Of a stretch of 64,000 nucleotides of DNA, positions 1 through 64,000 are shown piece by piece. Source of the DNA: Anaerolineales bacterium (GTDB taxonomy: Bacteria > Chloroflexota > Anaerolineae > Anaerolineales > DRMV01); NCBI GenBank assembly GCA_026996855.1, contig JALWJZ010000069.1, positions 31,628 through 95,627 of the forward strand. Direction: 5' to 3'. Numbering within the stretch: position 1 is the first letter of the stretch; each line of letters begins with the position of its first letter. Both the position numbers and the translations under genes were made by a program. The notes beneath the pieces are model-generated. The model was not told the origin of the DNA. It did no database searches and saw only the letters and a program-made list of their open reading frames with translations.

Positions 1-323
1 ATGCGCTCGATATTGGCATACGTCCACTTCCGGGGGTGAATGCCGTGCTTGATGGCCGCGTTCTCCGCGGGCAGGCCGAAGGCGTCGAACCCCATGGGGA
101 AGAGCACGTTGTAACCCCGCATTCGCATGAAACGGGCCCGTGCATCGGAAGGCACCATCGCGTACCAGTGACCGATGTGCAGGTCCCCGCTGGGATAGGG
201 GAACATGGTGAGTGCGTAGTGCTTGGGCTTCTGGGGATTCACATCCGCGTGGTAGATGCCATCCTCTTCCCAACGTTGCTGCCATTTGGGTTCGATTTCG
301 CGGGGGTTGTAGGGGCGAGCCAT
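1..323 (-). CDS. leuS: leucyl-tRNA synthetase, N-terminal part (runs off left edge)
   Basis: Reverse strand from ATG at 323..321 reads [87 protein letters not shown]. This has the class I HIGH motif and a typical LeuRS N-terminus. Not in the ORF track because it is truncated by the window edge. Confidence 0.9.
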
Positions 324-361
324 GAGACACCTCCCTGGGCGAAGGGGTGAGTGATCAGTGC

Positions 362-739
362 TCAGTGGTCCGTGTGAGTATGTCGCAAGGTGCGTTCCAG
401 TCCAAAGAGCATACGACGGATTTCGTGCATTTCCTGAGTGAGGGCTTGATATTCCTCGGACGTGAGATACACCAAATTCCGGCAGATTTCCATAAACGTA
501 TCCAGTTCGGCCAGAGAACCACGGGCAATGCGCAAATGGTTGAGAAATCCCTTGGTGGAATGCATACTGCCTTCCGCAATGTTTGCCGGTATGGATACGG
601 CTGCTCGACGGATTTGCGACGTGAGATTGAATTGCTCATGCGGGGGAAACCGGGCCGTAACCTGGTATATCGTGGAAACAAAGGTCACTGCCCGCTTCCA
701 CACCTCCAAGTCCCTATAGGAAAGCACCTTGTTCCCCAT
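362..739 (-). CDS. four-helix-bundle protein (23S rRNA intervening-sequence protein family)
   Basis: [57 protein letters not shown]...GSLAELDT is the hallmark pattern of this family (recalled, TIGR02436-like). ATG at 739 is preceded by GGAGGAGG. The track ORF extends to a GTG at 763. Confidence 0.8.
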
Positions 740-804
740 ACACCCCTCCTCCTCACCCATCACTATCGACTATCCACTATTCACTGTCCACTGGGCACTT
801 AACC

Positions 805-835
805 AAAAAATCTCCCGCCCCTCAGGGACGGGAGA
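805..835 (-). terminator. intrinsic terminator of the T-box leader
   Basis: Minus strand reads UCUCCCGUCCCUGAGGGGCGGGAGA followed by UUUUUU (plus 811-835 stem, 805-810 A-run). The 5' arm overlaps the T-box antiterminator sequence, as expected. Confidence 0.75.
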
Positions 836-1073
836 CCAAACCCGCGGTACCACCCTGGTTCTGGAGAGGCGCTTTCTCTCCAGCCCTCGGACCCCATAAC
901 GCGGGGAAGCGGCGCGGCTCAAGGCCCCTTTCGGAGCGTTCACCGCACGGGCATGGGCAGGCGAGTTCGGCCTTGACGGCGCTCCGCTGGCGCCCTGCCG
1001 GGCTTTCACCCTCCCCGGCTCGCTGGCGGATGGCCTACTACTCCCGCCCAAACCGCCTGGCTCGCTGCAGGTG
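805..1073 (-). promoter_or_regulatory. T-box leader riboswitch, candidate Leu (CUC) specifier
   Basis: Minus strand carries the conserved T-box sequence AACCAGGGTGGTACCGCGG (complement of about 842-860), directly followed by a terminator hairpin plus U6. A Stem-I-like region has AGUAG and GGUGAAA motifs, and GAA-CUC-G lies at 968..962 (CUC = 965..963). The fold was not computed. Confidence 0.75.
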
Positions 1074-1079
1074 AGCACA

Positions 1080-1108
1080 ATTCTACAAAAGGGCAAAATC
1101 CCCGTCAA
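1080..1108 (-). promoter_or_regulatory. sigma70-type promoter for the T-box leader
   Basis: Minus strand has TTGACG (1108..1103), a 17-nt spacer, then TAGAAT (1085..1080). Confidence 0.6.
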
Positions 1109-1110
1109 GG

Positions 1111-1139
1111 TTGACTTCCCCCTCCCGGAGTGCTATAAT
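1111..1139 (+). promoter_or_regulatory. consensus sigma70-type promoter for tRNA-fMet
   Basis: TTGACT (1111-1116), exactly 17 nt, then TATAAT (1134-1139). The tRNA 5' end lies about 20 nt downstream. Confidence 0.65.
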
Positions 1140-1158: not shown

Positions 1159-1232
1159 TGCGGGGTGGAGCAGTGGTAGCTCGCCGGGCTCATAACCCGG
1201 AGGTCGCCGGTTCGAATCCGGCCCCCGCGACC
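1159..1232 (+). tRNA. initiator tRNA-Met (anticodon CAT)
   Basis: Near-identical in layout to E. coli tRNA-fMet. It has the anticodon arm CCGGG-CTCATAA-CCCGG with three G:C pairs next to the loop, the T arm GCCGG-TTCGAAT-CCGGC, a weak 1:72 pair (U:G) and discriminator A at 1230. Only CC of the CCA end is encoded. Confidence 0.9.
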
Positions 1233-1234
1233 TG

Positions 1235-1267
1235 AAAACCGCAGGCAAACCCTGCGGTTTTTGTTTT
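1235..1267 (+). terminator. intrinsic terminator after tRNA-fMet
   Basis: AACCGCAGG (1237-1245), loop CAAAC, CCTGCGGTT (1251-1259), followed by TTTGTTTT. Confidence 0.8.
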
Positions 1268-1346: not shown

Positions 1347-3362
1347 ATGCCGCGAAGTGAAATGCTTTTGGCCTTCAACGAACTCATGGAAGAGCGCCAA
1401 TTGCCCCCAGAAATGATCGTGGAAGCGCTGAAACAAGCCATTGCTTCGGCTTACCGCAAGACCACCGGCGCGCCCTCGTCTCAAAAAGTGGACGTGGTCT
1501 TCGACCTGCCCAAAGGGCAGATTCGGGTGCTGGCAGAAAAGGAAATAGTGGCCGAGGTCAAGGACCCCCACCTGGAAATCAGCCTGGCCGAGGCCCGCAA
1601 AATCAACCCCGAAGCGCAAATCGGCGACTTCATCATGGTGGACGTCACCCCTCGCGACTTCGGCCGCATCGCCGCGCAAACAGCTCGCCAGGTGCTCAAG
1701 CAACGCCTGAGCGAACTGGAACGCAAGATGCAATACGACCACTTCAGCCAGTTGGTGGGGGAAATCGTGGCCGGCGTGGTGCAGGCGGTGCATCTCCAGG
1801 AAATCGTGGTGGGGCTGGAAAAACGGGCCGAAGGTCACCTGCCCCGTAAGGAGCAGATTCCCGGCGAACGTTTCCACGTACACGACCGCATCCGTGCCCT
1901 GCTGCTGGAAGTGAAAGAGACCAGCAAAGGGCCGTACATCGTGCTCTCCCGGGCGCACCCCAACTTCTTGCGGCGCCTGCTGGAGGAAGAGGTGCCCGAA
2001 ATCTACCGGGGTGAGGTGGAAATCCGGGCCATTGCCCGGGAACCGGGCCGCCGCTCCAAGGTGGCCGTTTCCGCCATCGCGCCCAACATCGACCCCGTGG
2101 GCGCGTGTGTGGGCATTCGTGGGGTGCGCATCCAGGCCATCATGCGGGAACTCAACGGCGAGAAAATCGACGTCATCCTGTGGGACCCCAACCCCGCAGT
2201 GTTCATCACCAAAGCCCTCAGCCCGGCCCGGGTGCTGCGGGTCTATCTGCGCCCTAACCCCGAAGGGGGTATCCCCCGAGGCACGGCCACCGTGGTCGTC
2301 CACGAAAACGAACTCAGCCAGGCCATCGGCAAAGAGGGCCAGAACGTGCGCCTGGCCGCCAAACTCACCCGCTGGCGCATCGACATCAAAAGCCTGGTGG
2401 AAGCCGCGTCCGAGGCCCTGGAGCGGGTTCAACAACAGCGGGAAGCCTTCGATTGGATGGACGACGCCACCCTGGAACAGGTGCACTCCCTGCTGGAAAA
2501 GAAACAGGCCGGACGCCCCCTGACCCCCGAAGAATACGACGTGCTCCTCCAGTTCCTGGACATGGTGGAACAGGGACACCGCCGCATGGAAGAAGAGCGC
2601 CGCCGCAAGGCGGAAGAAGAACGGGCCTTGCGGGAAGAAATTCCGGCCCAGGCCTTCGAGCAAACCCTGGAACATCTGAAACTGCCCCCGCGCCTGGTAG
2701 TCTTGCTTACCAACGCGGGGTACGCCACCGTAGGCGATTTGCTCTTGCAATGGAAACAAAACCCGGACGCCATCTTGGCCCTGAACGGCATTGGTCCCCG
2801 GGCCATGGAAACCATTCGCAAGGCCCTGGAGGCATACGAGGCCCAATACGCGGCCGAGCCCGAAGCAGAAGAGGCGGCCCCTGAGGCCCTTCCGGAACCC
2901 ACCGAAACGGTGGAGACTCTGGAACAAGTGGTGGCCGAGGCCGAAGAGGCCGAACCGGTATCCGTGACAGCCCAGCCGGTGGAGGGCGAAGCGGAACCCA
3001 TGCCCCTGGAAGCCGAAGAAGAGGCCCCCACCGCCCAGGCCCTGGAAGCCGAAGGCGTGGAAGCCAGCGTGCCGGAGGCCGCAGGAACCGAAGGGACGGC
3101 GGAAGCGGAGGCCGAACCGGAAACCCTGGACATGGAGGCAATCTTCGCGGCAGAACGGGTGCTTTCCGACCTCCCCCTGGAAGACTTGGGCGAAGAGGAA
3201 CCCGAAGTGCCGCAAGAACCCAAGAAGAAAAAGAAAAAGGCCAAAAAGAAGAAGGCCAAGAAACCCAAGCCCTTCGTGGAACTGGAAGAAGTGGAAGGCG
3301 AAGAAATCTACGTTGCCCGACGACGTCGGAAACGAGACGAGGACGAATGGGAGGAATGGTGA
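1347..3362 (+). CDS. nusA: transcription termination/antitermination factor NusA with a long acidic and lysine-rich C-terminal tail
   Basis: [38 protein letters not shown].., an S1/KH region ([29 protein letters not shown]) and an HhH-like segment ([13 protein letters not shown]). RBS GGGAGG precedes the ATG. Confidence 0.9.
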
Positions 3363-52763: not shown

Positions 52764-53756
52764 CTACGCCAGGGCCAGGGCCACGCCCACCAGCGCGGCC
52801 ATGACCTGGGTCAACCAAAAACGGGTCACCACCTGGGTTTCGGCCCAGCCGGATAGTTCGAAATGATGGTGCAACGGACTCATCTTGAAAATGCGACGGC
52901 CGCCCGTGAGTTTGAAATAGGCCACCTGCAAAATCACGCTCAGGGTTTCCAGCACGGGTATGAGGGCCAGAAAAGGAAGCACGAACCATTCCCCCAGCAT
53001 GAGCGCGACCACCCCCAGGGCCGCGCCCACGGCCAGGGAGCCGGTATCGCCCATGAAAACCTGGGCCGGATGGACGTTGAACCAGAGGAAGCCCAGCAAA
53101 CTCCCCGTGAGCAGGAAACAAAACTGCGCCAGTTCCATGGCCTCATGATGCAAAGCCAGGAAACCAAAAGCCGCAAAGGACGTGGCCGTAACCAGAGAAG
53201 CCAGACCGTCCAGGCCGTCGGTGAGGTTCACTGCGTTGGACGACCCCACGATGATGAAAATCCCCAGGGGGAAATACCACCACCCCACGGGCACCGGCTT
53301 GGGAATGCCGGGCAGGAACAGGGGCGGCGCGGCGTAGATGTGCTGAATCCACCAGACACCCACCGCGGCCAACAGCACCTGCACCACGAATTTGGTGCGG
53401 GCGCGAAGACCGTAGCCTCGCCGAATGCCCAGCCAGTCGTCCACCGCGCCCAAAAGCCCAAACCCAAAGACCATGGCCAGGGGCAACAGCACCACCTGCC
53501 CGGAAAACCGCAAACGATACACCCGCGTGGCGTGGATGAAGAGCAACATGAACACCACGGGCAACCAAATGACCCAACCGCCCATGGTCACCGTGCCCAG
53601 TTTGGCCAGGTGCCGCTCGGGCACGTCCGCTCGCAGGCCTTTCCCCATGCCCAAGGCCCGCAACAGACGCAACAGAGGCGGCGTCCACAGCCACGTGAGC
53701 AAAAAGGTGACCACCAGCAAACCCAGGGCCACCAGTCCAGGGTCAGGCGTGTGCAT
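52764..53756 (-). CDS. mraY: phospho-N-acetylmuramoyl-pentapeptide transferase
   Basis: GAVDDWLGI, NAVNLTDGLDGLA, FMGDTGSLAVG, PLHHHFELSGW. Confidence 0.95.
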   Translation of the reverse strand: MHTPDPGLVALGLLVVTFLLTWLWTPPLLRLLRALGMGKGLRADVPERHLAKLGTVTMGGWVIWLPVVFMLLFIHATRVYRLRFSGQVVLLPLAMVFGFGLLGAVDDWLGIRRGYGLRARTKFVVQVLLAAVGVWWIQHIYAAPPLFLPGIPKPVPVGWWYFPLGIFIIVGSSNAVNLTDGLDGLASLVTATSFAAFGFLALHHEAMELAQFCFLLTGSLLGFLWFNVHPAQVFMGDTGSLAVGAALGVVALMLGEWFVLPFLALIPVLETLSVILQVAYFKLTGGRRIFKMSPLHHHFELSGWAETQVVTRFWLTQVMAALVGVALALA

Positions 53757-59684: not shown

Positions 59685-59715
59685 AATTAGGCATTTTTCA
59701 TGTGCTGACACATGC

Positions 59716-59789
59716 TCACACAGAGCCACGGGGACACAGAGAATAGGCTGAAGAAGGCTAAAATTTTCTTCGTGTTTGCCTCCGTGAGA
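59716..59789 (+). repeat. CAC/GTG-rich hairpin element, copy 1 (degenerate)
   Basis: Left arm TCACACAGAGCCACGGGGACACAGAGAA (59716-59743), a 22-nt loop, and a shortened right arm TTCTTCGTGTTTGCCTCCGTGAGA (59766-59789). These form two roughly 10-bp helices of 8/10 each. Confidence 0.6.
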
Positions 59790-59979
59790 AAATGCGATGG
59801 CTTTCGCCGTTTTTGAAAAACGCCCGGGCCAAAATCGTGAAAAATGTATGAAACTCCGGCGCGACCATAACGGAAATCAAAACCCTATGTTATACTGATA
59901 ATTGTATTCCAGTCTTCCAACAACATTCGAACGGTCATGCGGGGAAATCGTGTCTTCTCTTTTGGAAGGAGGCACCCCT

Positions 59980-61551
59980 ATGACGGATTCCCTCACCATC
60001 CACATCCGCACCCGCACGCCCCTGTGGACCGGGGGCATCGACGGCACCATGGACCGCATCCACGAAACGGGGCTCATCGGCTCCCTGCGCTGGTGGTACG
60101 AGGCCATCGTGCGGGGGCTGGGGGGATACGCGTGTGACCCGACGGGACATGAGTACGAATTTACGGGCGAACGCCTGCGTCGCTATGAGCGTGCCCGGCA
60201 GCAAGGCAAAGACTGGTGGGAAGCCCTGGATGAAGCCGGCATTTGCGACGCGTGCAAGGTGTTCGGGACTACGGGCTGGCGGAGAAGGTTTCGGCTGGAA
60301 GCACGTCCCCTTGAAGGCGAATTTGACATTACCGAAGGCATGTTCCTCAGCGGGCGAGTGCATCCCGACAGAAGAAATCCTTACCGGACCGGTGGGTGGC
60401 TTTTGCGCGGCGGCTATCATGGCGAGTTGGAATTGAAGTTCATTGGCGACAAAGAGGTGCTGTGGTGTGAAATTTTGCCTGTCTTGCTTTTTATGGAGAA
60501 ATGGGGCGCCCTGGGCGCGAAGACTTCGTTGGGGTATGGCGTGTTTCAAATTCTTTCCATCAATGGACACCGCAAGGAAGCAGGCCAGTGTTGGCGGGAA
60601 TTTTTGAGGGAGAGCAGGGACATTGCCCCTCTTAACCTTCAGCAATGCTCAAGCTGGGTAGGTCAATGGTGGTGGAGAGGGGGATCATCAAACGGCAACC
60701 AATATCAAGGTATATTGCCTGCACTTACCAATATGTTCTTCGCTAAAGTACGGTTTTCTCCAGATGCGTCATCGGCTTCGGGGGAATGGTGGGAACAATT
60801 GTCAGAGGTGCGGTGGCTCAGTCAAGGCCAAATTCCTGAACAAGAAGCAACGTGGACAGGCGATCCTCAACGGCAACCCCCTGGCCCCTATGGAATTTCC
60901 AATCCTTTGCCCCTCTCCCGGCTTCAGTACTGGGTGGAGTGTCATAAGATGTTTCCAATCGCACCAATCCTACGTTCGCGTTTACGTTACGGCTATAGAT
61001 TTCCCAACGTCCAGGAGTTTCACTCCATATGCAATGGTGGTGGCGAAAGTGATTGGTGTAGGTTTGTGTTTGGGACAGTGCAGGGTAAAAGCCCCGTGTG
61101 TGGTTATTGCGGTACTCCGGTGCGACCGGATAGAGAAGACCAAAATCGCTGGTGGTGCAAGACTGGAAGGGTCTCACTGGATAACCCGGAAGTTGTTCAC
61201 GATGCAAAACGCATCCAAAGTAAAATTCGCATTTCGTGGGCATACTACATAAATGAGCAAGAGAGGGAAATACGCCTTTGGGGATGGCTCCCGGAAGATC
61301 AACGGGATCAACACAGCCAACAGCGTGCCTCACTCCTGCGGAAGTTGCGAAGTGTTCTGGGTGTCAATCGTTCCAACGCACGCCAATGGCATTCGGCCCA
61401 AAACGGCGCGCTGTGGTCGGCCCTCAATCTGATGCCAGCGCAAGTGTGCTGGTTTGAGCGAGGCGATAACGATAGAGAATCTTACCTGAAAGCCCTCTTG
61501 GAGGATTGCGGACAAACTTCACACGGAGACACGGGGAACACAGAGAAATAA
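59980..61551 (+). CDS. cmr1: type III CRISPR-associated RAMP protein, Cmr1-like (two RAMP-like halves)
   Basis: TPLWTGGIDG...IHETGLIGSLRWWYEAIVRGLGG, ICDACKVFGTTGWRRRF and a G-rich loop WGALGAKTSLGYGVF. The second half has CRFVFGT and SKIRISWAY. ATG 59980 follows GGAAGGAGG. The subfamily assignment is from memory only. Confidence 0.65.
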   Translation: MTDSLTIHIRTRTPLWTGGIDGTMDRIHETGLIGSLRWWYEAIVRGLGGYACDPTGHEYEFTGERLRRYERARQQGKDWWEALDEAGICDACKVFGTTGWRRRFRLEARPLEGEFDITEGMFLSGRVHPDRRNPYRTGGWLLRGGYHGELELKFIGDKEVLWCEILPVLLFMEKWGALGAKTSLGYGVFQILSINGHRKEAGQCWREFLRESRDIAPLNLQQCSSWVGQWWWRGGSSNGNQYQGILPALTNMFFAKVRFSPDASSASGEWWEQLSEVRWLSQGQIPEQEATWTGDPQRQPPGPYGISNPLPLSRLQYWVECHKMFPIAPILRSRLRYGYRFPNVQEFHSICNGGGESDWCRFVFGTVQGKSPVCGYCGTPVRPDREDQNRWWCKTGRVSLDNPEVVHDAKRIQSKIRISWAYYINEQEREIRLWGWLPEDQRDQHSQQRASLLRKLRSVLGVNRSNARQWHSAQNGALWSALNLMPAQVCWFERGDNDRESYLKALLEDCGQTSHGDTGNTEK

Positions 61552-61587
61552 TAGAAACTTCTCTGTGCTCTCTGTGGCTCTGTGTGA
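61519..61587 (+). repeat. CAC/GTG-rich hairpin element, copy 2
   Basis: TCACACGGAGACACGGGGAACACAGAGAA (61519-61547), an 11-nt loop, then TTCTCTGTGCTCTCTGTGGCTCTGTGTGA (61559-61587). Over 29 positions there are 24 Watson-Crick pairs, 3 G:U pairs (valid only as plus-strand RNA) and 2 mismatches. The cmr1-like stop TAA (61549-61551) lies in the loop. Confidence 0.85.
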
Positions 61588-61604
61588 GTTCTGTGGAAAA
61601 GGCG

Positions 61605-62066
61605 ATGAACGAGCAAGACCTGCACCGGCTTGTTGAACACCTGCAACAAACCCTGGGCGAGCGCCTGGAAGCGGTGGTGCTCTTCGGCTCCCGGGCCCGG
61701 GGCGAGGCCCGGCCCGAAAGCGATTGGGACCTGCTCGTCGTGGTCCAGGGCCTGCCCCGAAGCCCGCTGAAGCGATGGCAATGGTTTCTTGAGCAAGCCG
61801 GCCGTCCTGAGCCGGGCGTGGATGTCTTGCTCAAAACCCCCGAAGAATGGTACACGCATCTTTCCTCCCTTACGCTGGACGTGGCGCTGGATGGGCAGAT
61901 TCTCTACGATGCCCATGGCCGTATGAGCCGCTTCCTGGAACGGGTGCGGCAAAGCCTTCAAAAGGCAGGCCTGCGCCGGGAATTCCGCCGGGGGCACTAT
62001 CTCTGGAGATCGTCTTCCCACGAGAAGCCGTGGTACGAACGTCTTCGGGAGGCCCTTGCCCTATGA
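61605..62066 (+). CDS. minimal nucleotidyltransferase (MNT)
   Basis: VVLFGSRARGEARPESDWDLLVVV carries the GS...DxD motif. ATGA overlap with the HEPN gene. Confidence 0.8.
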   Translation: MNEQDLHRLVEHLQQTLGERLEAVVLFGSRARGEARPESDWDLLVVVQGLPRSPLKRWQWFLEQAGRPEPGVDVLLKTPEEWYTHLSSLTLDVALDGQILYDAHGRMSRFLERVRQSLQKAGLRREFRRGHYLWRSSSHEKPWYERLREALAL

Positions 62067-62503
62067 GTTCGCCCGTCACATACAGGTTTCGCCTGGCCCG
62101 GGGGTTCCTGCAAGAGGCCGAACAGGACGCTTCCCTTGGCCGCTGGCGAGCGTGCGTCGCCCACGCGCAACTGGCCGTGGAAAATGCACTGAAGGCCGTC
62201 ATCGCCTTGTTTGCTCCTGTGCCACGAACCCACGCCCCCACAGATGTTCTGCGCATGATGCTGGAAGAGGGCGACATTCCCCAGACCATGCGGACTGATG
62301 TTCAGGAATTGGTGGACATCGTGCAAGGCTTGGATTTGGCCACTATCCACATCCAGACCGACTACGGCGACGAAACCCACGGCTTGACGCCCTGGGAACT
62401 CTTCTCCGAAGAAGACGCCCGCGAAGCCCTGGCCATCGCCCGGCGGGTGGTGGCGAAGGCCGCGAGGCTGACTCAAGAACAAGGAGGCGCCGATGAAGCG
62501 TGA
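62063..62503 (+). CDS. HEPN-domain protein
   Basis: FRLARGFLQEAEQDASLGRWRACVAHAQLAVENALKAVIALF is a HEPN helix pair like the 8715 gene. It is partnered with the MNT. Its last 11 nt overlap the start of the cmr6-like gene. Confidence 0.75.
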   Translation: MSSPVTYRFRLARGFLQEAEQDASLGRWRACVAHAQLAVENALKAVIALFAPVPRTHAPTDVLRMMLEEGDIPQTMRTDVQELVDIVQGLDLATIHIQTDYGDETHGLTPWELFSEEDAREALAIARRVVAKAARLTQEQGGADEA

Positions 62504-63680
62504 ATTTTGGGCAGAGTTTGATTTGTACAATGAGCCTCAGAAACGTAATCTCATCCATTACTTTGTTGGAAAATCTCAGCGTAACGGAGAGCCACCGCAG
62601 CCACCTGAGCGACAAAATGGTCAGTTATCATGGGAATTGTTAGAAAACCAGGCCGTCCGACAACATATGTTGGCCCAACTTTTGGCTTCCGAAGAGAAAT
62701 GCGCCAAGACCAAATGCAAAGATTACGCCAAGGGCAAAAACGGCCTGCAATGGTGGTATTATGCTGGGAATCTTGCGGATCCACAAGGTGAATTTCAGAA
62801 CTTTCTGCGAAACCGCGTAAGGTGGATGGCGTCTGTCCTTGGTCTTGTCTATCAGCAAACTATAGTAGTCCCCGCCCTCCCCGACCTCTCCCGCTTCCCG
62901 CCCGGCACCTGGGCCGTTCAGGTCACTTTCACCCTGCGCAAGCCCTACATCAGCAAGGACGATGTGGACTTCTACATCCTGGACAACCCTGTCAAGAAGG
63001 AATGGGTCTTCAAGGTGCCCTACGTGGCCCCCAGCCAGTGGAAGGGCGCGCTGCGGGCGGCCATGGTGCGGGAACTGGTCATGGCTTTTGGGGAAGGTGA
63101 AATAAACGAAGACGAGTTTGTCGAAAAGCGACTTCAAATGTATCGCCTTTTCGGCAATGAAAAGGATGGCACGGCTGAGTTTCTCAACCGTACCCTGGCA
63201 CGGTTCCGCGTAGGCCCACCGCCCCAAGAAAATGGTAAGGAAGCAACAAGACAATGGCGAGAACGGCTGGAACGGGAAACGAAAGTTGTTGCTGAGGAAT
63301 TTGAAAGCGCGTTGCGTGAGAATGGGTATCGCGTTGGGGATATTGAGAGTTTCCAGGGCCGCCTCCACTTCTACCCCACCTTCTTCGACCGCATCGGCCA
63401 GGAGATCATCAACCCCCACGACCGGAAGAAGGGCGCGGGGAAGCACCCCATTTACTTTGAGTGTGTGCCCCCGGAGACCAGCGGTATTTTCACCCTGCTC
63501 TATGTCCCCATCGGCGGTGGCCCAAAGGACGAGACAACCTGCAAAGCCGATCTGGAAGCAGTGGTACAAGGCATCCGCGCCATGCTCACCACATACGGCT
63601 TCGGCGCCAAGACCAGCAGCGGGTATGGTGTGGCGAAAATTGAAAATTTTCACACGGAGGCACAGAGAACACAGGGATAA
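62493..63680 (+). CDS. cmr6: type III CRISPR-associated RAMP (Cas7-fold) protein, Cmr6-like
   Basis: ILDNPVKKEWVFKVPYVAPSQWKGALRAA, MYRLFGNE, GRLHFYPTFFD...IINPH and a C-terminal G-rich loop YGFGAKTSSGYGVAKI. ATG follows AAGGAGG. The first roughly 110 aa are A/T-richer and were not recognised. Confidence 0.65.
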   Translation: MKREFWAEFDLYNEPQKRNLIHYFVGKSQRNGEPPQPPERQNGQLSWELLENQAVRQHMLAQLLASEEKCAKTKCKDYAKGKNGLQWWYYAGNLADPQGEFQNFLRNRVRWMASVLGLVYQQTIVVPALPDLSRFPPGTWAVQVTFTLRKPYISKDDVDFYILDNPVKKEWVFKVPYVAPSQWKGALRAAMVRELVMAFGEGEINEDEFVEKRLQMYRLFGNEKDGTAEFLNRTLARFRVGPPPQENGKEATRQWRERLERETKVVAEEFESALRENGYRVGDIESFQGRLHFYPTFFDRIGQEIINPHDRKKGAGKHPIYFECVPPETSGIFTLLYVPIGGGPKDETTCKADLEAVVQGIRAMLTTYGFGAKTSSGYGVAKIENFHTEAQRTQG

Positions 63681-63712
63681 AAATCCTCCGTGTCCTCTGT
63701 GCCTCTGTGTGA
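63650..63712 (+). repeat. CAC/GTG-rich hairpin element, copy 3
   Basis: TCACACGGAGGCACAGAGAACACAGGGAT (63650-63678), loop AAAA, then ATCCTCCGTGTCCTCTGTGCCTCTGTGTGA (63683-63712). The outer 23 positions give 21 WC, 1 G:U and 1 mismatch. The stem is extended by AUUUU/AAAAU. The cmr6-like stop TAA (63678-63680) sits at the apex. Confidence 0.85.
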
Positions 63713-63734
63713 AAATCCCTTGGAGACATAGGTT

Positions 63735-64000
63735 ATGCACGAGAATCAAATTGGCACAATCATTGTGCAAACGGCTATAGAACTGCACAAAGACCTTGGG
63801 CCAGGACTGTTAGAGAGCGTGTATGAAGTGCTGCTGGCCCATCGTCTGCGGCAGAAAGGCCTACGGGTGGAACGCCAGGTTCCAATAGCCATTGAAGTCG
63901 ATGGCTACCGGTTTGAAGAAGCCTTTCGCGCGGACCTGATTGTGGAAGGCAAGGTGATCGTGGAGTTGAAGTCTGTCGAGCAAGTGCACCCCGCGCACAA
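63735..64000 (+). CDS. GxxExxY protein (PD-(D/E)XK-like small protein), truncated by the window end
   Basis: MHENQIGTIIVQTAIELHKDLGPGLLESVYEVLLAHRLRQKGLRVERQVPIAIEVDGYRFEEAFRADLIVEGKVIVELKSVEQ contains the eponymous G..E..Y and a D...ELK motif. Not in the ORF track because no stop falls within the window. Confidence 0.8.
   Translation, partial: MHENQIGTIIVQTAIELHKDLGPGLLESVYEVLLAHRLRQKGLRVERQVPIAIEVDGYRFEEAFRADLIVEGKVIVELKSVEQVHPAH

Follow-up and report, generated by a model that had tools for sequence, protein, structure and literature searches.

A putative intervening-sequence-type four-helix-bundle cassette between a predicted Leu-specific T-box leader and leuS in an Anaerolineales bacterium

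Introduction

The leucyl-tRNA synthetase (LeuRS) gene, leuS, lies at one end of a 64-kb stretch of DNA from an Anaerolineales bacterium (contig JALWJZ010000069.1 of assembly GCA_026996855.1), hereafter the window, where it is preceded by a T-box leader and a small gene of the four-helix-bundle (4HB) family PF05635, the family carried by intervening sequences (IVS) of 23S rRNA. We consider it highly probable that the promoter, the Leu(CUC) T-box leader, the 4HB gene and leuS form one transcription unit, into which a promoter-less IVS-type cassette bearing the 4HB gene has been inserted. The T-box itself is ordinary and adds one more case to a familiar family. Less usual is the site of the cassette, a riboswitch leader being an uncommon host for an IVS-type PF05635 element, and the general cassette architecture and its habit of settling in operons form the more interesting result. 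All features of the locus lie on the minus strand of the window unless stated otherwise, and their coordinates are collected in Table 1.

Loci and comparison sets

Comparison set A comprised 80 related leuS loci from species-level relatives (Anaerolineae), the best match among them being an Anaerolineales metagenome-assembled genome at 88% identity. The closest relative without the insert, L002, has a LeuS N-terminus 88% identical to that of the window. Twenty-four Anaerolineae leuS leaders were aligned (alignment A4). Sister loci that carry the insert (L082, L083 and L085-L087) were tested in differing subsets. A 4HB profile hidden Markov model (HMM) was built from 26 family members, and comparison set B consisted of 80 metagenomic 4HB (PF05635) loci, L088-L167, of which 71 have both flanks present.

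Table 1. Positions of features at the leuS locus within the window
Feature	Position	Strand	Details
Leader promoter, sigma-70-like	1108..1080	-	-35 TTGACG (1108..1103), 17-nt spacer, -10 TAGAAT (1085..1080); 10/12 consensus matches
T-box leader	~1073..803	-	~270 nt; ends in G+C-rich hairpin and U-run
Stem I	1049..955	-	base helix GGGCGGG (1049..1043) paired with CCUGCCC (961..955)
Stem I specifier loop	1042..1036 and 968..962	-	AGUAGUA and GAACUCG
Stem I distal part	1024..1019 and 1018..998	-	AGCGAG bay (1024..1019), distal stem, GGUGAAAG loop (1018..998); distal loop GGUGNNAG
Specifier codon	965..963	-	CUC (Leu); GAA before, purine G after
Stem II, Stem IIA and Stem III	950..861	-	Stem IIA with CCGCGUUA element (904..897; CCGUUA element); Stem III 883..861
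T-box sequence	860..843	-	AACCAGGGUGGUACCGCG; UGGU bulge; antiterminator versus terminator, whole region 860..803
T-box core	855..843	-	GGGUGGUACCGCG
Intrinsic terminator (predicted)	837..809	-	13-bp G+C-rich stem, then U-run 810..805
Inserted cassette	~793..344	-	~450 nt; absent from L002
Upstream arm	793..752	-	tandem heptamers CAGTGGA CAGTGAA TAGTGGA TAGTCGA TAGTGAT GGGTGAG; Tandem Repeats Finder period 7, 4.6 copies
4HB Shine-Dalgarno region	754..743	-	GAGGAGGAGGGG; 4-15 nt 5' of ATG; identical in all sister loci
4HB gene	739..362	-	125 aa and stop (stop codon 364..362)
Downstream arm	370..344	-	GACCACT GAGCACT GATCACT CACCCC; overlaps 4HB stop codon
leuS	336..1	-	Shine-Dalgarno AGGGAGG (336..330), ATG 323..321; coding sequence runs off window

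The T-box leader

Structural evidence for the leader comes from the 24 aligned sequences. The canonical T-box structure pairs 93.4% of cells in this alignment, against 32-50% when the partners are slid, and compensatory changes occur at 35 of 47 pairs; none of 500 shuffles attained the observed values. Helices 1-4, which make up Stem I, show changes on both sides at 20 of 22 pairs, compensatory changes are present in helices 5-7 (Stems II, IIA and III, a stretch partly covered by the Rfam RF00230 alignment), and the antiterminator helices 8-9 are 98-100% paired. The 14-nt T-box sequence AGGGUGGUACCGCG (856..843) is invariant across all 24 leaders. Further invariant or near-invariant elements are AGUAGUA, AGCGAG, GGUG..AG, GAACUCGCC, CCCGUUA and the T-box core. 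Folded as single sequences, the leader and the cassette were unremarkable (z about -1 for each), so that the structural support for the leader comes entirely from comparative analysis.

The specifier GAACUCGC (GAA-CUC-G) is likewise invariant, in 24 of 24 aligned leaders, and at least 38 of about 50 Anaerolineae leuS leaders contain it. The specifier agrees with the regulated gene, CUC being a Leu codon and the gene downstream leuS. The UGGU bulge implies a discriminator A73, as in bacterial tRNA-Leu. As judged from the aligned sequences, the leader is a real, transcription-attenuating, Leu-specific T-box. An earlier, sequence-only reading of this DNA had placed a T-box with its terminator and antiterminator at 860..805, a Leu specifier in Stem I and a near-consensus promoter ahead of them. 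The coordinates that it gave are all correct, and each feature was borne out: the first by the core, the terminator stem, the U-run and the covariation, the second by its invariance and by a covarying Stem I base helix, and the third by the sister loci L082 and L085, which keep the hexamers as TTGACG-17-TA(C/G)AAT around a diverged spacer. T-boxes are already on file for Chloroflexi (PMC2494555), and the reference list of that paper includes CUC as the classical Leu specifier in Bacillus.

One competing pairing was set aside. RNAalifold paired ACUCGCC of the specifier segment with GGGUGGU of the T-box; this pairing does not covary and was replaced by the covarying Stem I base helix. It spans seven pairs (A4 columns 150-157 with 302-308, corresponding to window positions 966..959 with 855..849), both segments are invariant, and their complementarity may be due to chance or reflect an alternative contact in the off state.

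Insertion between the leader and leuS

In the window 532 nt separate the T-box core from leuS. Among the 80 related loci, the GGGUGGUACC(G/A)CG core was found 60-470 nt 5' of leuS in 47, and in 41 of these it lies within about 200 nt (roughly 60-200 nt), typically at about 100 nt. L002 and the window have a near-identical leader and terminator, after which L002 continues straight to the leuS ribosome-binding site; the alignment resumes at CCCC..GGGAGGUGUC.CAUG after a clean block of about 450 nt found only in the window. Neither tblastn nor the profile HMM found a 4HB open reading frame (ORF) near leuS in any of the 80 related loci. Because of the core-to-leuS distance, the block missing from L002 and this absence from all relatives, the 4HB gene is, by sequence comparison, a lineage-specific insertion. 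The sequence-only reading had suggested that the gene entered the interval between leader and coding sequence, and the comparison bears this out; the gene is not a universal neighbour of leuS with a promoter of its own.

The insert is present at the same site in five sister loci whose LeuS N-termini are 92-94% identical to that of the window. Their order, nusA, tRNA-Met, promoter, T-box, 4HB and leuS, was found in independent assemblies, and the T-box stays intact across this insert-bearing clade. Close homologues of the 4HB protein form one 90%-identity cluster (P0001 is 97% identical), and the next-best homologues, from unrelated phyla, reach no more than 54-57% identity. The simplest history would be that a narrow Anaerolineales clade gained the insert once, in its ancestor.

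Other elements were observed in the same spacer of related loci. Inverted heptamer or octamer hairpins that contain no ORF lie directly 5' of leuS in L012 (2335-2440, z -3.0), L014 (1885-1998) and L052 (2870-2965). Those of L012 and L014 sit between the T-box terminator and leuS, and L052 has no detected T-box core; such hairpins may be related to the 4HB cassette as decayed or non-autonomous forms. L056 carries a long one-sided array in the T-box-to-leuS spacer, and partly complementary arrays of 7-8 nt (956-991 and 1077-1158; CGTTGGAA upstream, TTTCAAC downstream) bracket its antiterminator and terminator. Elements resembling miniature inverted-repeat transposable elements, of the form GTCATTGCGAG...CTCGCAATGAC, occupy the spacer in L018 (2660-2780) and L075 (1840-1900), and short ORFs are found there in L049, L075 and L078. 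Short-period arrays occur within 300 nt 5' of leuS in 9 of 75 relatives, against 0.03 per 300 bp elsewhere; this excess is a hint, since the background is mostly coding sequence. The transcribed, non-coding spacer between T-box and leuS evidently accommodates terminator-free insertions.

The four-helix-bundle gene

The predicted 4HB protein matches PF05635 at 124.5 bits (cut-off 33.8) and TIGR02436 at 119.2 bits (cut-off 24). It has all 20 invariant columns of the 26-sequence family alignment and the conserved GxxRxxxSxxxNxxE-type motif, which is described for the family in PMC3936711. Two solved structures in the PDB are homologous to it by sequence, 2gsc (E 2e-22) and 2rld (E 4.5e-9), and both depositions contain five chains. 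The leuS fragment downstream, which encodes the LeuRS N-terminus, has leuS_bact as its best match (E 2e-42), and its ATG lies 38 nt past the 4HB stop codon. The description of a 125-aa, 23S-IVS-type ORF with its own Shine-Dalgarno sequence, closely followed by leuS, was thus accurate in family, signal and spacing.

Between the window and L082 the 4HB gene has diverged at dS 0.45 and dN 0.021, a ratio of 0.05. The ORF is intact and, to judge from this ratio, under strong purifying selection; because it is kept in this way, the protein presumably does something for the element or for the host. Nothing ties its function to leucine. A second copy was sought in the window by tblastn and HMM, and none was found. 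Membership in the Avd family of diversity-generating retroelements was rejected on score (NF033474, 38.8 bits against a cut-off of 80; PF22296, 32 against 40) and on context, the neighbours being the T-box leader and leuS with no adjacent reverse transcriptase or template/variable repeat.

Heptamer arrays at the ends of the cassette

The 4HB gene is bracketed by two short-period arrays. The upstream arm is G-rich on the coding strand, and the units of the downstream arm are approximately the reverse complement of the upstream units; an inverted-repeat search found the pair. The arms include an 18-nt pair that is 83% complementary and is paired in both the minimum-free-energy (MFE) and the centroid fold of 806..325. 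Arm complementarity, at chance level in the window, is significant in the sister loci L082 (z -4.3) and L085 (z -6.4), and heptamer copy number varies between sister strains in both arms. On our analysis, these inverted arrays mark the insert as an IVS-type cassette, a point that the sequence-only reading did not contain.

The cassette at other loci

The same architecture is general, occurring in 55-77% of the 71 4HB loci of set B with both flanks, as a rule within housekeeping operons. Within 120 nt of the gene, 45 of these loci have a short-period array upstream, 55 have one downstream and 39 have both, against a background in the same loci of 0.04 per 120 bp. Of 84 arrays, 71 have a period of 7. 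The arrays stop about 24 nt before the ATG and begin about 5 nt past the stop codon. If one mismatch is allowed, the downstream unit matches the reverse complement of the upstream one in 38 of 42 both-side loci (about 5% in a mismatched-locus control), and 40 of the 42 have an upstream unit that is G-rich on the coding strand. In 38% of loci the duplex energy between the flanks goes past the 5th percentile for mismatched pairs.

The neighbours of 4HB genes are mostly co-directional (52 of 68 upstream), and the genes split housekeeping operons at carA|carB, sdhA|sdhB, dnaK|dnaJ and pncA|pncB; family members occur in many unrelated operons and in rRNA genes. Related 4HB proteins in contexts that share no blastn similarity carry related heptamer units, GTGGATA in one group being the unit of the window. 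The unit varies between loci yet tracks the 4HB protein clade. These shared units in unlike contexts suggest that the ORF and its arms travel together. As far as sequence comparison goes, the cassette architecture and its generality are well established. Beyond the Coxiella IVS (PMC4990558), no general account of heptamer-flanked PF05635 cassettes outside rRNA was found in the searchable literature, a search that was incomplete, so that earlier work may exist.

At L116 and its counterparts L129 and L133 the flanking DNA is 95% and 84% identical and the 4HB proteins only 76%. Here the cassette gene either evolves much faster than the host genes or has been replaced in situ.

A second case of small genes lodged in an operon occurs within the window, on the plus strand, in a type III-B cmr operon (59700..64000). 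Between and beyond its Cmr1-like (59902..61548) and Cmr6-like (62493..63677) ORFs stand an MntA-like nucleotidyltransferase gene (61605..62063) and a GxxExxY (TIGR04256) gene that begins at 63735 and runs off the window; this lodging is the same habit as that seen at leuS. Three homologous hairpins of about 70 nt with inverted CACAGAG/CTCTGTG-type units (59710..59790, 61518..61592 and 63646..63716) each occupy a spacer of the cmr operon, 15-25 nt 5' of an ATG, and resemble the ORF-less hairpins 5' of leuS. For the hairpin at 63.7 kb the MFE is -48.8 kcal/mol (z -7.9), and Rfam miRNA-precursor models match it.

Expression of the unit and alternative explanations

In a T-box, an uncharged tRNA base-pairs with the leader twice, through its anticodon at the specifier and through its free ACCA end at the UGGU bulge, and so stabilises the antiterminator. 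In the leader described here, the anticodon of uncharged tRNA-Leu(GAG) would pair with CUC in the Stem I specifier loop, and the ACCA end with the UGGU bulge; this would favour the antiterminator over the terminator, letting RNA polymerase read on. The 4HB gene would not be part of this regulatory logic. It would belong to a cassette of about 450 nt that has no promoter but brings a Shine-Dalgarno sequence and inverted heptamer arrays. In a recent ancestor of the clade this cassette would have landed in the spacer, past the terminator U-run and ahead of the leuS ribosome-binding site. T-box control of leuS would survive because the cassette brings no terminator, and the cassette would be transcribed whenever leuS is, that is, when tRNA-Leu charging falls. 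No terminator was predicted between the T-box terminator and leuS, including the gap between the 4HB gene and leuS, no internal promoter is conserved, and the T-box is kept in the insert-bearing clade; for these reasons the best inference from the sequences is that tRNA-Leu controls a transcript shared by the 4HB gene and leuS. Hitch-hiking on leuS transcription is the most likely reason for the location of the cassette.

Several observations weigh against this interpretation. At the gathering threshold Rfam does not call the T-box and reports only the neighbouring tRNA-Met. In E-value mode RF00230 gives its sole match within the 64 kb at 943..821, where Stem I is skipped and the 47.1 bits fall below the gathering score of 93. 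The check with this model, which the sequence-only reading had recommended, gave a significant match (E 5e-9 in a 1-kb scan, 3.2e-7 over the whole window); because the score is below gathering and Stem I is unmatched, T-box membership is argued from comparative analysis. A cognate tRNA-Leu(GAG) gene was not found in the window. A weak promoter-like site, TGGACA-17-GATAGT (790..762; 9 of 12 matches), lies in the upstream array. The 4HB genes of L085-L087 have an in-frame 15-nt deletion that removes a family-invariant V and W, and constraint on the gene may be relaxing in this part of the clade. The complementarity of the arms in the window does not exceed that of dinucleotide shuffles (z -0.12), so we claim no stem from the window sequence by itself, and in L083, which has lost most of the downstream array, it is not significant either. 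Over 26 loci, arm mismatches include 33 sense-strand G.U against 37 A.C, which is no excess; a process acting on the DNA, and not selection for an RNA stem, may thus keep the arms complementary.

These last points bear on an extension of our interpretation that does not contradict it. The heptamer arms may pair in the mRNA and be cut by RNase III, which would free the 4HB mRNA and separate leuS from the leader, the leuS mRNA then having a short new 5' end. We offer such cleavage as a conjecture, possible although somewhat doubtful. The Coxiella IVS that RNase III excises (PMC4990558) agrees with the cassette in ORF family, in size (428 nt, against about 450 nt here) and in having variable heptamers upstream, and the pairing of the arms in both folds, their strong complementarity in L082 and L085 and the complementary arms at 38 of 42 both-side loci point the same way. 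The chance-level arms of the window, the arm lost from L083 and the missing G.U excess point the other. A different role for the upstream array would be to hold a promoter that drives the 4HB gene and leuS constitutively, the T-box being bypassed or vestigial. The site at 790..762 could serve as such a promoter, but its predicted start falls inside or past the 4HB Shine-Dalgarno sequence, it was not detected in L082 or L085, and the T-box core, terminator and leader promoter are kept across the clade at dS of about 0.45, which is unexpected for a bypassed switch. We regard this alternative as improbable.

The nearness of the 4HB gene to leuS, its probable co-regulation and its strong purifying selection would also fit a dedicated partner of LeuRS or of tRNA-Leu metabolism that was recruited to the leuS operon. 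Such a partner would hardly be expected to be absent at leuS in 80 of 80 related species, to have its closest homologues outside the sister clade at 54-57% identity in unrelated phyla, or to belong to a family spread over many unrelated operons and rRNA genes, and we hold this explanation to be very improbable. That the locus is an assembly or metagenome chimera deserves mention because the window comes from an uncultured organism. The same order recurs in diverged copies from independent assemblies of different samples, namely a Logan SRR13622958 contig, GCA_026990755.1, GCA_027051155.1 and three ENA metagenomes, and we give a chimera next to no credence. A single T-box-controlled transcription unit with an inserted cassette thus remains our preferred explanation.

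Neighbouring features

The leuS leader promoter stands back to back with a near-consensus plus-strand promoter for tRNA-Met(CAU), TTGACT-17-TATAAT with an extended TG (1111..1139), the two -35 boxes being separated by 2 nt (1103..1139). The tRNA-Met region (1159..1263) is followed by a terminator-like hairpin and then by nusA (1347..3362), an order that recalls the E. coli metY-nusA-infB arrangement. Elsewhere in the window, ARAGORN calls a 101-nt tRNA-Arg(ACG) at 53352..53452 on the minus strand, where the Rfam tRNA model is silent even at E 0.05; the call may be false, or the tRNA may be atypical or interrupted.

Significance

The locus amounts to a natural experiment on a T-box, in which about 450 nt of foreign coding RNA has been placed between the decision point and the gene and the switch has not been destroyed. 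A selfish gene would thereby have become inducible by amino-acid starvation. The finding that a module of ORF and heptamer arms is common outside rRNA, in housekeeping operons and with complementary arms, offers a testable model for the 30-year-old puzzle of rRNA IVS and S23p. Loci like that of the window would allow an mRNA to take the place of the ribosome in assays of processing, mobility and protein-repeat recognition. A practical consequence concerns annotation: where short-period inverted arrays surround an ORF of about 120 aa, they mark an inserted cassette and not a member of the operon.

A broader and tentative view, which we think rather unlikely as it stands, is that PF05635 genes and their inverted heptamer arrays constitute one widespread class of promoter-less selfish cassettes that colonise transcribed non-coding spacers of essential units. 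Targets would include rRNA helices (the classical IVS), gaps in housekeeping operons and the gap between a riboswitch and its gene. The arms would make insertion harmless, through excision or processing of the RNA or through a DNA hairpin, and a pentameric protein would recognise the heptamers of its own lineage. Such recognition would account for the joint change of protein clade and repeat unit. The hairpins of inverted heptamers without an ORF that occupy the T-box-to-leuS spacer in other Anaerolineae would be decayed or non-autonomous relatives of these cassettes.

Comparison with known systems

The 4HB protein is distantly related in fold to Avd (PF22296/NF033474), whose models it matches below their cut-offs. 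In its position it resembles the genes interposed in cas operons that are treated in PMC3936711, small genes inside otherwise conserved operons, as is also seen in the cmr operon of the window. The accessible part of that source reports a PF05635 gene between cmr3 and cmr2 in Pleurocapsa and toxin-antitoxin genes in cas loci; it treats the interposed genes as possibly Cas-associated and does not describe flanking arrays or hitch-hiking.

The leader shares with the Leu T-boxes of B. subtilis leuS and ilv-leu (RF00230) a Stem I with an S-turn specifier loop, CUC, AG bay and distal loop, Stems II, IIA and III, a 14-nt T-box with UGGU, mutually exclusive antiterminator and terminator, and a position 5' of an aminoacyl-tRNA synthetase gene. 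Unlike them, it is G+C-rich, reaches half the Rfam gathering score with its Stem I missed by the model, and has about 450 nt with a foreign gene between its terminator and the regulated gene. No kink-turn/GA motif was obvious below the specifier loop, which received no dedicated examination for one.

The closest counterpart of the cassette is the IVS of 23S rRNA in Coxiella and Leptospira (PMC4990558). That of Coxiella burnetii is 428 nt long and has an S23p (PF05635) ORF, strain-variable heptamers upstream and a terminal stem cut by RNase III. The two have in common the ORF family, the size, strain-variable heptamers directly 5' of the ORF, terminal inverted complementarity (the arms of the window cassette being degenerate) and a promoter-less state inside a host transcript. 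They differ in that the cassette described here lies in an mRNA leader instead of helix 45 of 23S rRNA (Rfam gave no rRNA hit within the 64 kb), and in that its ORF has a strong Shine-Dalgarno sequence and bears the signature of purifying selection, whereas the Coxiella ORF is reported to be probably unexpressed and decaying (PMC4990558).

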